26,034 nt of DNA from an uncultured Thermoplasmatales archaeon (lineage in GTDB: Archaea > Thermoplasmatota > Thermoplasmata > Thermoplasmatales > ARK-15), in assembly GCA_964431165.1 (NCBI GenBank), contig CAYSIM010000001.1:1-26034 (forward strand), given 5' to 3'. The translations under genes were made by a program, and so were the position numbers. The notes below the pieces were generated by a model that made no database searches, was not told the DNA's origin, and saw only the letters and a list, made by a program, of their open reading frames with translations. This document shows, in pieces, positions 1,852-20,803 of the stretch. The stretch's first letter is position 1. Each line of letters opens with the position of its first letter.

Positions 1852-3670
1852 GGCAGGTCTTGAAATACATCAGCAGCTAGACACAAAAAAATTGTTCTGC
1901 TCCTGCGATTCTTATTTGAGCGATAATGTGAGGGGTGAATTCACAAGGATACTTAGACCTGTGCAGAGTGAACTTGGTGAATATGATGCAGCAGCGCTTA
2001 TGGAATCCATAAAGGGAAGAACCTTCGTTTACCAGATTACGGATAATTCGTGCCTTGTGGAGATGGATGAGGAACCACCCCACGAAGTAAATATGGAGGC
2101 ACTTGAAACATCCATCCAAATAGCTTTAATGTTCAACTGTAGAATAGTGGATGAAGTCCATTTTATGAGAAAAATAGTGATTGATGGATCCAATACATCA
2201 GGATTCCAGAGAACTGCCCTCATAGGTATGGATGGCTACATAGAAACGGATTCAGGCAGGATTACAATCAGATCTGTTTGCTTGGAAGAAGAAGCAGCAA
2301 GGAAGGTGGAGGAAAGGGAGGGTATTGCAATCTACAGACTGGATAGACTTGGTATACCCCTCATTGAGGTGACCACAGGCCCGGATATGAAAACACCAGA
2401 GGATGTGAAGACTGTGGCGGAAAGGATAGGCTATGCGCTCAGGGCAACTAGGAAGGTGAAAAGGGGTGTGGGCACCATAAGGCAGGATCTGAACATTTCC
2501 ACCGATGGTGGAAGGGTAGAAGTAAAAGGTGTTTCAAGGCTGAATCTCATAGAAAAAATAGCCAGGTACGAGATGGAAAGGCAAAAAATGCTAACTGAAA
2601 TAGCCATGGAATTAAAGAAAAGAAAGCCTGATTTGAATAATATGGAGATATTTGATGTTACTGAAATATTTTCATCAACTGGAAGTAAAATAATAAAAAA
2701 TTCCCTTGTAAGGGGTGAAAGGGTACTTGGCATAAAGGTACCAGGATTCAGGGGGCTTTTGAAGGGGGATAAATACAGATTCGGAAAAGAACTTGCAGAA
2801 CTTGCTAGGGCCATGGGAATTCCCGGCATATTCCATTCTGACGAGCTACCAAACTATGGCATTACAAATGATGAGGTAAATAAACTCAAAAGATTTTTCA
2901 ACATCTCAGGTGATGATGCATTCATAATAATGGCTGCAGAAATATCTAAGGGTAAGGAGGTGATGGCGTACATAATAGAAAGGATTAGAAAGGCAATGGA
3001 GGGAGTTCCTTCAGAAACAAGGGGTCCAAGGGATGATGGCACGACAGAGTTCATGAGACCTCTGCCAGGCAGGGAAAGAATGTATCCTGAAACGGATGTA
3101 CCGCCAATAAAAATTAACGAGGAAATGATTGAGAGATTGAAAAAAACATTGCCAAAATCCTTCGAGGAGGCTCTGGAAGAGGTATCGAAAAAATATGATA
3201 TATCCCAGCAGCAGGCAAGGCAAATACTCGATGAAAACAGGGAGGATGAATTCTCAAGATATTTTTCAATTTACAGTAATGGAAAAGTGATTTTCAGAAC
3301 TCTATTCAACACACTTCCCGAAATGGAGAAGGAGGGTCTTGACGTTTCAAAAATTAAGGAAGAGGATCTTGAAAAAATATTCAAAGCAGTGGCTGAAAAA
3401 AGGGTGCTGAAGGAGGCGATACCTTATATGATAAAATACATCATCGAAGGTAAAGGATTGCCTTTCGATGAATTCTCACCTCTGGATGAGGACTCTTTAA
3501 GGCAGATGCTTGAAAAGATTTTAGAAGAGAATTTGAATGATGTTAAATCGAGGAATGCTCTCCAGGCCATGATGGGTATAGCCATGGATAAACTAAAGGG
3601 CAGGGCAGATGGTGAATCCGTTAACAGGATCCTGAAAAAATTGCTGGATGAGAGGGGTGGTATGAAATGA
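1844..3670 (+). CDS. gatE: Glu-tRNA(Gln) amidotransferase subunit E
   Basis: KAGLEIHQQL, KLFCSC, RKIVIDGSNTSGFQRT, DRLGIPLIE, RMYPETD motifs. ATG 1844 overlaps the gatD stop, with SD-like AGGAGGGTG upstream. Confidence 0.96.
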   Translation: MFKAGLEIHQQLDTKKLFCSCDSYLSDNVRGEFTRILRPVQSELGEYDAAALMESIKGRTFVYQITDNSCLVEMDEEPPHEVNMEALETSIQIALMFNCRIVDEVHFMRKIVIDGSNTSGFQRTALIGMDGYIETDSGRITIRSVCLEEEAARKVEEREGIAIYRLDRLGIPLIEVTTGPDMKTPEDVKTVAERIGYALRATRKVKRGVGTIRQDLNISTDGGRVEVKGVSRLNLIEKIARYEMERQKMLTEIAMELKKRKPDLNNMEIFDVTEIFSSTGSKIIKNSLVRGERVLGIKVPGFRGLLKGDKYRFGKELAELARAMGIPGIFHSDELPNYGITNDEVNKLKRFFNISGDDAFIIMAAEISKGKEVMAYIIERIRKAMEGVPSETRGPRDDGTTEFMRPLPGRERMYPETDVPPIKINEEMIERLKKTLPKSFEEALEEVSKKYDISQQQARQILDENREDEFSRYFSIYSNGKVIFRTLFNTLPEMEKEGLDVSKIKEEDLEKIFKAVAEKRVLKEAIPYMIKYIIEGKGLPFDEFSPLDEDSLRQMLEKILEENLNDVKSRNALQAMMGIAMDKLKGRADGESVNRILKKLLDERGGMK

Positions 3671-5442
3671 AATATGTACCCGATACATCTGTTATAATAA
3701 ATGGAAAATTTCTCGAAATAATTTCTGATAATGATGAAATAATAATTCCAGAATCCGTTCTTTCAGAAATAGAGGCACAGGCCAACAGGGGTTTGATGAT
3801 TGGTTTTACTGGATTGAAGGAGCTTGAAAGGTTAAGATCCATGGAGAGGGAAAAGAACCTGAAGATTTCATTCTACGGTAGAAGACCTGATAAATGGCAG
3901 ATAGAAAGGGCAAAGAGCGGTGAAATTGATGAGATGATAAGGCAGGCAGCACTGGAGAATAATGCAAAGCTTGTAACGTCAGATTTCGTGCAGGCAAGTG
4001 TGGCAAGGATTAAGGGTGTGGATGTTCTTTTTATAGAAACTAAGAGAGGACCATCGGTAAAGATAGAGGACTTTTTCGATAATGATACCATGAGTGTCCA
4101 TCTGAAGGTAAATACATTCCCTATGGCGAAGAAGGGAAGCCCCGGAAATTTTAATCTTGTAAAAATATACGATAATATTCTAGAGGAAAATGATCTTGAA
4201 GAGATTGCAATGGACATTGTTGAAAGGGCAAGGAGTGAGAGCAATTCATTCATTGAGATTGAAATGAAGGGTGTAACCGTTGTTCAGTTGAGGGAATACA
4301 GGATAGTTATAACAAGGGAACCATTTTCAGATGGCATTGAAATCACAGCCGTAAGGCCAATAGTGAAATTTAGCATTGAACATTATGGCCTTGATGATAA
4401 TCTCATAAAAAGGCTGAATGAAACAACTAGGGGAATAATAATCTCTGGTGCACCAGGTGCAGGAAAAACAACATTTGCTCAGGCACTTGCTGAAATGTAC
4501 AGTGCCTCAGGGAAAATAGTTAAGACTATTGAGAGGCCCAGGGATCTACAGGTGAGGGATGAGATCACGCAGTACACTGCACTGGAGGGAAGCATGGAAA
4601 AAACAGGGAATATACTATTGCTTGTTAGACCTGATTATACAATTTTTGATGAGGTAAGGACATCGGAGGATTTCCAGGTTTATGCGGATTTGAGACTCTC
4701 AGGTGTTGGTATGGTGGGTGTTGTTCATGCGACGCGTCCGGTTGATGCCATACAGAGATTGATAGGTAGAATAGAGCTTGGAATGATACCACAGGTAACG
4801 GATACATTCATCCATATTGATGCAGGGAGTGTGAAGAGTGTTTATTATCTTGAATACACCGTGAAGGTACCTACTGGAATGAAAGAAGAGGACCTATCCA
4901 GGCCCGTTATAGAAGTAAGGGATTTCTTTACAAATGCCCTCGAGTTCGAAATCTACAGTTTCGGTGAACAGGTGGTGGTGGTACCTGTAAAAGAGGAGAA
5001 AAACAGGATATACCAGCTTGCAGAGATGAGAATACAGGAAATTCTAAGGAAATATATTCCACACGGTTTTAAAGTGGAGATTTCATCACCTGCCAGCATG
5101 AGGCTATACATTCCATCTGAAGATATTCCTGAAATAATAGGGAAGGGTGGGAGCAATATAGATAAGCTTGAAAAAATTGTTGGACTTCACATAGATGTTT
5201 TTCCCATGCATGAGGGTGAAATAATCCCGGTAATGGTGCAGAAAAAGAAGGATGTTTTTTACCTGGTACTTGAGGGGGAGGTGAAGAAAAGGGAGGGAAA
5301 TATTATGGCAGATAGTGATATATTATTTACAGGTGTTTTCTCAAAGGAAGGCATTATGAAAATAAAACAGAATTCACAGGAAGGAATGGAACTCATGAAT
5401 GCACTCACACAGGGTAAAAAAATTTATTTCAGACCCTGGTAA
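3667..5442 (+). CDS. PINA-type ATPase (PIN domain + RecA-like ATPase + KH); Holliday-junction branch-migration motor family
   Basis: N-terminal PIN (YVPDTSVII), Walker [31 protein letters not shown] motif [13 protein letters not shown] overlap with gatE. Confidence 0.9.
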
Positions 5443-6861: not shown

Positions 6862-6893
6862 CAGAATAATGAATGATTTATTCATATAAATAT

Positions 6894-7669
6894 TCAGCGA
6901 TTTTTCCTAGGCCAGTAGTCATAGAATATGACGGCAGCAGCTATTAATGCCAGTGTAATGAAAAGATAAACATAGCTCATGGTGGGTATGTCCCCTGTCT
7001 GACCAGCAAGAATGAGTTTTATGTCTCCAAGCCATGGTATCCATCCTGTGGCAAGACCATAGACCATCCCCATTGTAACAGGTCTAGGGGCAATGCCCAC
7101 ATTCTGATCAGCAGCATAGTAGGCTACGTCTGGATATATAACATTTGGATCCATGAATTGTGAATTGGCAAGATTGTTATCACCCATGGTGATGAATCCA
7201 TCCTCACCAATGAATTTTGAAAGGTCAACAACGAGATTCTTGTGTGAAAAACCTACATTTAATATTACAACTTTATAACCCAGTATTTCAAGCCAGTTTC
7301 CAGCCTTATATGGAAAAATGGACCGTTCCATGAAACGTAGAACATGGCCCTATGTATTACAGGCACAGAATTTGGATATGGAAGGTAAAGGATTACATCA
7401 CCATAATCACCATATGAAACATGGTTAATTTCCCTTCCTTCAACATAGGTTATTATACTGCTAACGTTCGTCACCTTCTTTGGTATGACAATATCCCCCG
7501 TGTTAATAACACCCCATGTAAAATCGCTACCATGCTGCATTGATGATGATTCGATTATTGTCATCGGTGGCCATATACCTGAGTAGGCGTAAAGTGCAAG
7601 GAATACAATAAGAACTGCAGCTACTGCAATACCCAGGCTCTTCAATGTTTCTTTTACTTCCTTCTGCAT
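6894..7669 (-). pseudogene. Signal peptidase I (S26, archaeal Ser/His type) split by a -1 frameshift; may be an assembly error
   Basis: ORF 7265-7669 has an N-terminal TM, IESSSMQH (catalytic Ser), GDVI and VIHRA (His). ORF 6894-7331 has FITMGDNN and a C-terminal TM. Adding one base between ~7349 and 7268 gives a single 258-aa protein. Confidence 0.85.
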
Positions 7670-7735
7670 ACTAGATTATAAAGGAATGCATTCTTAATAT
7701 TTTTTCTGATTTTTTTATCACATCTTTGCTTTTAA

Positions 7736-8206
7736 GACATCTTTCTAAAGCTAAAGGATAGAAAAGTGAATAGTGAGTGTGAGAAATATTTTAATACAAG
7801 AAAAAACATAGAATATAATGTATGAGAATAGATGCAGATTTGATTAAGGAAGATAGGAAAAAGGTGAAGCAACGGGCAGATAAACGAAGATTAAAGATAA
7901 CAAGGGCTTATGCAGTATTAATAAGGAAGGCTCTGGAGTATGAAAATTCAAAAGGTAATTAAGTGCGAAATAATCGGTCCAACGAGAATGAAAGAAAGGA
8001 TATTCAAATGCGGAGTATTTGGATTGAAATATAATAGATATTTTAACGGGGCAGTTAATATAGGAAACAGGCTCTCTGGCTATATGCTGAAGGCCAGAAG
8101 AAGTGGACCTGCGAACTCCCCCAGCGAACAATATCCCGAAAGGGAACATAATGGCAATTCAGTATTCGAGGGGAGAAGCTCCATCGGTAAAGGTGGGGTA
8201 GTTCAC
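7736..8206 (+). mobile_element. Non-autonomous, internally deleted IS200/IS605-family (tnpB-only, IS1341-like) element; left boundary tentative
   Basis: Right end GAAGCTCCATCGGTAAAGGTGGGGTAGTTCAC (8175-8206) matches the family's subterminal hairpin plus TCAC end. A tnpB remnant lies inside. Candidate TAM TTTAA 7731-7735 is followed by an imperfect hairpin at 7739-7764. Confidence 0.8.
7822..7962 (+). CDS. Small ribbon-helix-helix-like protein (46 aa) upstream of tnpB; below the ORF-track cutoff
   Basis: MRIDADLIKEDRKKVKQRADKRRLKITRAYAVLIRKALEYENSKGN, a strand-helix-helix pattern. Overlaps the tnpB start by 23 nt. TATA-like TTTTAATA 7789-7796 sits about 25 nt upstream. Confidence 0.6.
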   Translation: MRIDADLIKEDRKKVKQRADKRRLKITRAYAVLIRKALEYENSKGN

Positions 8207-8221
8207 TATTTCCTATCATGA
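7940..8221 (+). pseudogene. tnpB: TnpB remnant: N-terminus fused in frame to a degenerate C-terminal zinc-ribbon/RuvC-III segment
   Basis: MKIQKVIKCEIIG resembles archaeal TnpB N-termini. IFKCGVFGLKYNRYFNGAVNIGNR is a decayed FxCxxCG...NRDxNAAxNI motif (second Cys lost, catalytic Asp now Tyr). The frame reads through the right end. Confidence 0.78.
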
Positions 8222-8226
8222 TAGCT
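8103..8226 (+). ncRNA. TnpB omega RNA (reRNA) scaffold 8103-8206 plus putative flanking guide from 8207; 5' end approximate
   Basis: Hand-checked pairings: pseudoknot GUGGAC 8103-8108/GUUCAC 8201-8206; CUCCCC 8116-8121/GGGGAG 8170-8175; CGAA 8125-8128/UUCG 8165-8168; UCCC-GAAA-GGGA 8134-8145; terminal 8-bp stem 8178-8185/8192-8199 with G-U pairs. Confidence 0.72.
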
Positions 8227-10718: not shown

Positions 10719-10813
10719 CCCGGCTTAGCTCAGTGGTAGAGCGGCGGACTGTAGTGGGAAAAAATTCCGCCGCGGACATCCGCATGTCCCCGGTTCGAAT
10801 CCGGGAGCCGGGA
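10719..10813 (+). tRNA. tRNA-Tyr(GUA) with a 23-nt intron (10755-10777) at canonical position 37/38
   Basis: Acceptor CCCGGCT/AGCCGGG with C1-G72 and discriminator A; D arm GCTC/GAGC; anticodon stem GCGGA/TCCGC; GTA at 10751-10753; T arm CCCGG-TTCGAAT-CCGGG; bulge-helix-bulge can form; CCA not encoded. Confidence 0.96.
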
Positions 10814-20095: not shown

Positions 20096-20803
20096 ATGAA
20101 GGTGGGTGTTTGCGGTTTCTGCATGAAAAGATCTGAAATATATAAGGAGCTTGATGCAGTGGAGATACAGAAAACATTCTACGATTTTGTGGATGAATCC
20201 TGGTTAAAACGCCTGAGGGATGAGTCTGGAGATTTTGAATTCACCATAAAAGCAATACAGGTGATTACACATGGAAAAAATTCCACTACCTATAGAAGAT
20301 TCAGGTCCTCATTTGGAAATATGGAAAATTATGGGGGTTTCAGGGAAACGGATGAAATTAAAAACGCCATGGAGAAGATGCTCCTTTATGCTAGAATCTT
20401 GAATTCAAGAATCATAATATTCCAAGCACCCCCATCATTCTCTGAAAATGAAGAGAATTTGAAAAATTTGATGAATTTTTTTGTAAAATATAAAAGTAAT
20501 GAAATTTTATATGGCCTGGAGCTAAGGGGAAAATGGAGCATGGAAACTCTAAAAAATATCTATGAAACTCTTGGCATAATTCACATTGTTGATCCATTCA
20601 AATCAGAAAGTGTGAGTGAAGGAATGAGATACTTCAGGCTTCATGGCATAGGAGGTTATGCCTATTCATACACAGACGAGGATCTTTTCATATTGAAGAA
20701 TAAAGTTAAAGAAAATGATTATATAATGTTCAACAACACCAATATGTGCAAGGATGCAATCAAATTCAGGATGATGATCCATGGAATCAAGAACACCCGC
20801 TAA
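20096..20803 (+). CDS. DUF72 (YecE-like) family protein
   Basis: KVGVCGF, AVEIQKTFY, FEFTIKA.Q.ITH, FQAPPSF, ELRGKW, YFRLHG, YSYTDEDL, MFNN. Confidence 0.88.
   Translation: MKVGVCGFCMKRSEIYKELDAVEIQKTFYDFVDESWLKRLRDESGDFEFTIKAIQVITHGKNSTTYRRFRSSFGNMENYGGFRETDEIKNAMEKMLLYARILNSRIIIFQAPPSFSENEENLKNLMNFFVKYKSNEILYGLELRGKWSMETLKNIYETLGIIHIVDPFKSESVSEGMRYFRLHGIGGYAYSYTDEDLFILKNKVKENDYIMFNNTNMCKDAIKFRMMIHGIKNTR

Follow-up and report, generated by a model that had tools for sequence, protein, structure and literature searches.

A 488-bp segment in the genome of an uncultured Thermoplasmatales archaeon is very probably a decaying, non-autonomous derivative, shortened by an internal deletion, of an archaeal (Thermoplasmatota, hot-spring) IS200/IS605-type element that has no tnpA. 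It occupies positions 7719-8206 of the DNA analysed here (the window; 26,034 nucleotides, positions 1 to 26,034 of contig CAYSIM010000001.1, assembly GCA_964431165.1, forward strand) and retains both ends, a gene for an RHH-like protein, a tnpB stub and an omega-RNA scaffold. The source assembly (1.14 Mb in 138 contigs, 82% complete, 37% G+C) is derived from a hot-spring metagenome, and a genome of the same family bears the label Thermoplasmatota; the contig of the window is designated C1, and two other contigs of the same genome (G000) are designated C6 and C42. A preliminary description of this DNA had proposed a miniature IS200/IS605 derivative of ~470 bp. The derivative itself is upheld, its size is corrected to 488 bp by a left end at 7719, and an intact 46-aa RHH-like gene inside the element (7822-7962) that the description omitted has to be added. 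That proposal depended on TnpB similarity and on the existence of copies or an empty site, and TnpB-like halves, sibling copies and an uninserted site in the genome G004 have all been found. Every component is of an already published kind, with precedents both for RHH-TnpB pairs and for miniature elements bearing an omega-RNA, and the element represents no new system.

The 93-codon open reading frame (ORF) noticed earlier is present on the plus strand at 7940-8221. It is a tnpB remnant by homology, not a functional member, as judged from tblastn of an intact 393-aa TnpB (P0002, described below) against the genome of the window, from the alignment of sibling copies and from a weak match to the Pfam family Cas12f1-like_TNB (PF07282; ORF residues 9-41, E 0.0012, 19.4 bits, below the cut-off of 26.3). 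Both halves are derived from TnpB: positions 7940-8005 correspond to TnpB residues 1-22 (17 of 22 identical), positions 7982-8128 (ORF residues ~15-63) to residues 321-370 (60%), and positions 8112-8198, in another frame, to residues 366-393 (72%). Thus, tnpB codons 1 to ~20 (7940-~7999) are joined to codons ~321-393, and the ~300 codons that have gone (~21-320) held RuvC-I, RuvC-II and the first half of the zinc ribbon. In what is left, the second CxxC is broken (CGVFG), the TnpB tail is out of frame because of a 2-nt deletion after 8111, and the RuvC-III motif at 8033-8041 reads NRY, as had been pointed out, where intact relatives (the same-family genome G012, P0002 and the metagenome contig L053) have NRD. 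A protein with RuvC-I and RuvC-II deleted, Tyr for the RuvC-III Asp, half a zinc ribbon and a frameshifted tail does not qualify as a functional TnpB.

The search for siblings suggested in the preliminary description has yielded two further copies in the same genome. The C6 copy (20366-20803, minus strand), 88% identical over window positions 7762-8207, has the same deletion junction as the window copy at an unrelated locus, with a right flank unrelated to that of the window. A 4-nt indel at its junction places the two tnpB parts out of frame, and the in-frame fusion reported before is accordingly real in the window copy but particular to it. The C42 copy (6870-7088) is 88% identical over window positions 7990-8206 only, i.e., the 3' ~220 nt; it is a 5'-truncated tnpB pseudogene covering residues ~160-393, with one stop and two frame changes and with no RHH gene. 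Since one junction occurs at two loci, the mini-element moved after the deletion, from which we infer mobilisation of the deletion derivative in trans on at least one occasion. All three copies have Tyr at the position of the RuvC-III Asp, and this substitution is therefore older than the deletion and than the divergence of the copies. The insertion site of the C6 copy is not comparable because an N run, at about 1945-2000 of L002 (G000:C6) and directly left of the left-end hairpin of this copy, hides the left flank. Both the C1 and C6 variants are present in contigs of the source metagenome, and no empty-site joint was found in these source-run contigs, which drop rare variants.

A full-length parent, which the preliminary description had recommended looking for, exists as a family whose form of ~1.4 kb is found in metagenome contigs. 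When the TnpB fragment of G012 was compared with 1.8 billion representative proteins, it led to P0002, a 393-aa TnpB, 82% identical to the fragment, which is encoded on the 1523-bp contig L034; a gene call of 50 codons on this contig overlaps the start of tnpB. With the small RHH-like protein as query, a scan of metagenomes led to L053, a 45-kb contig with a 46-aa gene at 3001-3138 and a 394-aa tnpB at 3119-4303. A scan of genome contigs with the G012 TnpB fragment gave distant relatives only. The full form comprises, in this order, the putative TTTAT target, the left-end hairpin, the putative promoter, the 46-aa RHH gene, the 393-aa tnpB, the omega-RNA scaffold, the right-end hairpin and TTCAC, with tnpB overlapping the RHH stop codon and the scaffold the 3' end of tnpB. 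The TnpB family (P0002, L015, L053 and C42) has Gly at the expected position of the RuvC-II Glu (IVFGDV) and keeps Asp in RuvC-I and RuvC-III, apart from the RuvC-III Tyr of C42 given above.

Shortened forms of this family are not confined to the genome of the window. In G053, a genome of another family in the same order, a small RHH gene and 47 codons of tnpB are followed by the terminal ~130 nt of the element; the junction differs from that of the window and therefore reflects an independent deletion. In G012, an element of ~140 bp (L074, G012:C75, about 1370-1515), preceded by TTTAT, consists of the left end joined to the right-end hairpin only. The deletion in G053 and the ends-only element in G012 show that the family spawns miniatures repeatedly. 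G012 also has left-end copies on its contigs C3 and C12 and right-end copies on C74 and C75, the contigs breaking inside the element, and a separate mini family of ~260 bp with the terminus GGTAGTTCAC (L072 and L073, i.e., G012:C32 and C63). Another miniature is found on the minus strand of L021 (G026:C4) at about 1500-1830; it begins with a 53-aa gene having a putative resemblance to COG1753/VapB-type small DNA-binding proteins, followed by ~23 codons from the N-terminus of a different TnpB (MAVRSYKSRLYPN...), which precede a right-end hairpin of type 1 (defined below) with GTAGTTCAC.

The ends of the element have been located by comparison with these relatives. TTTAT lies 7 nt before a TTGCTT motif in the window (7714-7718, plus strand), L053, L034 and G053; in the 140-bp mini-element of G012, the counterpart of this motif is TTTCTT and the distance is 6 nt, and the sequences upstream of TTTAT are unrelated between these copies. 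The left-end hairpin of L053 follows TTTAT at a distance of 19 nt. In the IS608 paradigm, the left cleavage site is likewise 19 nt 5' of the hairpin. Because similarity starts at the common TTTAT and the spacing in L053 mirrors this paradigm, the left end was placed at 7719; the conserved TTTAT would then be the left cleavage and target site as well as the predicted TnpB TAM. The preliminary description had put the left end at 7736 after TTTAA, but similarity to the full-length elements reaches 17 nt further left. The left end of the window copy (7719-7761) aligns to those of L053 and L034 and includes an eroded subterminal hairpin (7736-7761). The right end (8178-8206) comprises a hairpin (8178-8199) and the terminal AGTTCAC; its terminus ...GTAGTTCAC ends at 8206, exactly where eight related copies lose similarity, and in other elements with the same terminus similarity also stops after TTCAC.

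These ends have the arrangement of the IS200/IS605 family, with subterminal hairpins on the same strand, termini that are not inverted repeats of each other, and insertion 3' of a short target with no duplication, the two flanks, TTTAT and TATTTCC, being different. In L053 and L034, 8-bp hairpins of similar sequence occur at the left (CTCCTTCC/GGGAGGAG) and right (CCCCATCC/GGGTGGGG) ends. Stems of this type 1 are found in L053, L034 and the window, and stems of type 2 (CCTCGC/GCGGGG) at both ends in G053; the latter match the ends of complete insertion sequences with TnpA and TnpB in G012 and G053. Left and right hairpins that are alike and change together would be expected of sites read by a single Y1 transposase. 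The hairpins of the window are recognisable and weakened: as DNA, the z-score of folding at the left end is -0.44 in the window versus -3.0 in L053, and that at the right end is -1.57 versus -2.6 to -3.5 in intact relatives. The right end that had been called canonical is thus confirmed in its terminus at 8206 by the eight copies, while its hairpin is a weak one.

At the 3' end of the tnpB remnant, a consensus structure of 33 base pairs was obtained with RNAalifold from eight 3' regions. It defines a scaffold of 134 nt with five helices on the plus strand (8073-8206), the helices being at 8073-8093, 8102-8108/8201-8207, 8116-8124/8167-8175, 8134-8145 and 8178-8199. Eight of the pairs are changed on both sides, as compared with 1.9 ± 1.2 in column shuffles (0 of 500 reaching this number) and 0-3 in slid controls, so that the fold is backed by covariation. 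The pairing of AGUGAAC (8102-8108) with GUUCACU (8201-8207) at the terminus immediately precedes the would-be guide, for which a flank at 8207-8226 (plus strand) may be assigned, by position only, from the known architecture of TnpB omega-RNAs (PMC10055086). A structured RNA that overlaps the 3' end of tnpB and stops at the right end fits an omega-RNA and is predicted to be one, while no omega-RNA family of Rfam reached its gathering score in the window. The window copy keeps all 33 pairs (seven of them wobble), as compared with 25 of 33 in C6 and 29 of 33 in C42. Both independent deletions, that of the window and C6 and that of G053, kept the whole scaffold, and the ends-only mini-element kept the last hairpin only. 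Mini-elements carrying omega-RNAs and relying on TnpB in trans have been described (Meers et al., 2023, PMC10055086).

The element lies in a 562-bp spacer between a signal-peptidase-like gene (minus strand, start 7669) and a gene for a secreted subtilase-type peptidase (plus strand, start 8232), its right end being 25 nt from the ATG of the latter. In G004, a genome of the same genus, the same two genes are separated by a spacer of 86 bp, with AATTTTTAT where the window has a T-run and TTTAT followed by the element. This uninserted site, the search for which had been suggested, supports an insert of ~480-490 bp; as a comparison between species, it does not fix the boundary to the base, and when the flanks were joined by excising the element and aligned to G004, many pairs of boundaries scored alike (71-78). 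With the C6 copy and the short spacer of G004, the element is thus present in more than one copy and has an uninserted counterpart, to the precision just given. The only A/T-rich box before the peptidase gene in G004, TTTTTATAT, is about 30-40 nt before the ATG; the element sits there, and in the window this box is now 488 bp away. The peptidase gene may depend on read-through from the element. The signal-peptidase-like gene (6894-7669, minus strand) is split in the window into two overlapping ORFs (6894-7331 and 7265-7669), and it is a single open frame of 257-316 aa in 15 of 15 same-family genomes; the split is a frameshift, either of a pseudogene or by an assembly error. Elsewhere in the window, positions 10719-10813 give an Rfam tRNA match (95 nt, 61 bits), ARAGORN finding none, and may represent an intron-containing archaeal tRNA.

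The RHH/Arc-like gene (7822-7962, plus strand) is an open frame encoded inside the element beside tnpB, and its homologues precede and overlap tnpB in L034, L053, G053 and G012. Such a gene precedes tnpB in three TnpB lineages, namely the P0002/L053 family and the two more distant ones of L055 and L056-58. Twelve homologues align gap-free, and the features common to them, an MRID.. segment at the N-terminus and two predicted helices, conform to the RHH pattern. The AF2 monomer has two helices with a pLDDT of 77 and no strand. A Foldseek search of the PDB with this model gave no match at E ≤ 0.001, and its top list is mostly RHH proteins (CopA, ORF56, AmrZ, CopG, Arc and SvtR) with E values of about 1 or worse. 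Comparison of the RHH alignment with the sequences of Pfam and the PDB gave nothing meaningful, a word-index protein search returned only the protein itself, and a homodimer prediction scoring 0.36 against a mark of 0.42 has been counted neither way. Taken together, an RHH fold of the 46-aa protein is at most moderately supported by these predictions. A putative promoter with an A/T-rich TATA-like box (7784-7796, plus strand) precedes the gene, and an operator-like palindrome remnant, CATAGA-N6-TGTATG (7807-7824, plus strand), extends into its start codon. The palindrome is perfect (CATACA-N6-TGTATG) in L053 and L054, where it likewise overlaps the start of the RHH gene, and the subgroup of L034 and G053 has GTATG direct repeats 12 nt apart; the palindrome has one mismatch in the left half-site in the window and is lost in C6. 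The protein would presumably act as a repressor of the element promoter by binding to these sites.

Across the family, the dN/dS of the RHH gene is 0.05-0.25. Between C1 and C6, the gene has 10 nonsynonymous changes and one synonymous change, indicating neutral drift since the split of these copies, and residues conserved in the family are altered, for instance Gly23, which is Arg in C1 as well as C6, and Tyr30, which is Asn in C6. RHH-like sequences occur in other settings as well. In L059 (1133-2407) and L060 (3001-4275), the domain forms the N-terminus of a 424-aa non-TnpB protein, and L054 has an RHH-like gene alone, in front of an unrelated gene. A 124-nt contig of the source run X1 aligns with window positions 7814-7937 with 14 differences and is distinct from a C6-like contig, which suggests a further RHH variant in the community.

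No Y1 TnpA was found in the 82%-complete genome, either as a PF01797 match or by tblastn with the TnpA of G012, and the search for tnpA that the preliminary description had called for is thus negative in this assembly, where no Y1 HUH transposase was detected for the element either in cis or in trans. Matches to Y1 TnpA number ten in G012 and one in G053, and there are none in G026 (99% complete), which nevertheless has type-1 right ends; among all sequences searched, a transposase for type-1 ends was identified nowhere. The assembly also has no intact cognate TnpB. Its only intact TnpB belongs to an IS607-type element (G000:C86:2563-4393) composed of a 204-aa serine recombinase with a MerR-HTH and a 435-aa open frame holding TnpB. 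As a possible parent or mobiliser, this element was ruled out because its TnpB is only 27% identical and its ends are of another type. The three copies in the genome are 86.5-89% identical to each other, in comparison with 98% for the two right-end copies of G012. Most likely, the window copy is an old, now immobile and probably inert relic, whereas the missing 18% of the genome could hold TnpA or an intact TnpB, and the 33 kept omega-RNA pairs and open RHH frame are compatible with residual function. As to mobilisation in trans by TnpA, the preliminary description agrees with the C6 junction for a move in the past, but mobility at the present day is unlikely for copies so old and eroding.

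These observations are consistent with a stepwise decay. The RuvC-III Asp would have been replaced by Tyr in the lineage of all three genome copies, after which ~900 bp (tnpB codons ~21-320) would have been deleted, possibly between two short stretches coding for KER/KGR. A Y1 TnpA acting in trans would then have peeled out the mini-element and pasted it, giving the C1 and C6 copies. The transposase would finally have been lost, or have never been resident, and the copies would have drifted since.

The retained RHH gene invites the explanation that the remnant is kept for a function, in which the orphan RHH protein would repress incoming cognate promoters, like a repressor-only defective prophage, or control the downstream peptidase gene. 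For Arc (RHH) proteins encoded by elements of the IS605 family, Moon, Zedaveinyte, Wiegand & Sternberg (2026, bioRxiv 10.64898/2026.09.24.754181) have reported binding to the promoter of the element and its repression, and the family-wide dN/dS, the position of the insertion at the only A/T-rich box before the peptidase gene of G004 and the frame that is open in both mini-copies and after the independent G053 deletion agree with such a role. The 10:1 ratio between C1 and C6 is, however, what is expected without selection, both copies have altered conserved residues, the palindrome is degraded or lost, and a frame of 46 codons can stay open by chance, so that this explanation is very unlikely. 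In an extended form, derivatives with only RHH and omega-RNA would be repressor-only copies that silence incoming RHH-TnpB elements (transposon immunity), the peptidase gene here also coming under the element promoter; that the two independent deletions, in this genome and in G053, kept the RHH gene and the whole scaffold is a weak hint of this, and we accord it very little probability.

Both deletions, having removed tnpB and kept the RHH gene, might also have left the antitoxin of a toxin-antitoxin pair whose TnpB toxin was deleted, as proposed for an archaeal RHH/MazE-TnpB clade whose catalytic site is rearranged (PMC10691335), and the Gly for the RuvC-II Glu in the parent TnpB family (IVFGDV) recalls this clade. 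The P0002/L053 family is only a candidate match to it, and IS200/IS605-type ends, several copies and ends-only miniatures fit a transposon, for which addiction is not required. Moreover, the replacement of Asp by Tyr is older than the deletion, so an active nuclease in need of neutralisation had probably gone by then, and the RHH gene has drifted neutrally since; a toxin-antitoxin remnant is therefore extremely improbable. It is also highly unlikely that the mini-element is still active, with TnpB loading the omega-RNA and TnpA cutting the ends, both encoded either in the 18% of the genome missing from the assembly or in another member of the community: copies 11-13% apart with no near-identical pair, weak DNA hairpins, the absence of an empty-site joint in the source-run contigs (though these drop rare variants) and the failure to find a TnpA outweigh the intact set of scaffold pairs, the at least one further RHH variant in the source metagenome and the described mini-elements served by TnpB in trans (Meers et al., PMC10055086). 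A decaying deletion derivative accordingly remains the preferred reading.

The element resembles several known systems. Arc-containing IS605 elements, noted earlier by Zedaveinyte et al. (2023, bioRxiv 10.1101/2023.11.20.567912), similarly have a small RHH gene beside tnpB, promoter repeats or palindromes, IS200/IS605-type ends and a 3' omega-RNA. The present element differs from them in that it is archaeal and has no tnpA, in that its RHH gene is co-directional with tnpB and overlaps the tnpB start, and in that its RHH protein has no detectable similarity to Pfam or PDB RHH families; repression is putative here, and tnpB has been lost in the window. Altae-Tran et al. (2023, PNAS, PMC10691335) have described TnpB groups with a rearranged RuvC-II, Gly replacing Glu, and an archaeal RHH/MazE-TnpB clade that was read as a possible toxin-antitoxin pair and described as non-mobile, the RHH/MazE-associated branch having His in RuvC-III. 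An archaeal tnpB directly downstream of a small RHH gene, a long 3' guide-RNA region, a patchy distribution and the Gly for the RuvC-II Glu are common to these groups and the present family, whereas transposon ends, several copies, miniatures and an uninserted site distinguish it from that clade, and intact members keep Asp in RuvC-III instead of His. Like PATEs and MITEs (Dyall-Smith et al., 2011, PMC3119063; PMC10055086), the window element is short and non-autonomous, arose by internal deletion, occurs in more than one copy and has both ends and, as is often the case for them, an omega-RNA, TnpA and TnpB being required in trans. PATEs have no protein-coding gene between their ends, as is true of the ends-only element of G012; the window element is unlike them in having a complete RHH gene and a 93-codon tnpB stub, and in being present in only two copies, both old. 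The parent form corresponds to IS1341-type (tnpB-only) members of IS200/IS605 in having tnpB and subterminal hairpins with no tnpA, but it also has an RHH gene, and the window copy has no functional tnpB.

Collectively, the copies provide a stepwise example of how a transposon with an RNA-guided nuclease is whittled down to a miniature element, a single family comprising the complete element, a miniature that has kept both RHH gene and omega-RNA, and an ends-only element of 140 bp. Surveys of thermophilic TnpB have candidates in the full-length P0002 and L053, for which the TAM is predicted to be TTTAT and the scaffold has 134 nt. With its TnpA-style ends, this archaeal RHH-TnpB family shows the behaviour of a mobile IS200/IS605-type element, and this mobile behaviour bears on the question of whether RHH-TnpB pairs are transposon modules or toxin-antitoxin pairs.
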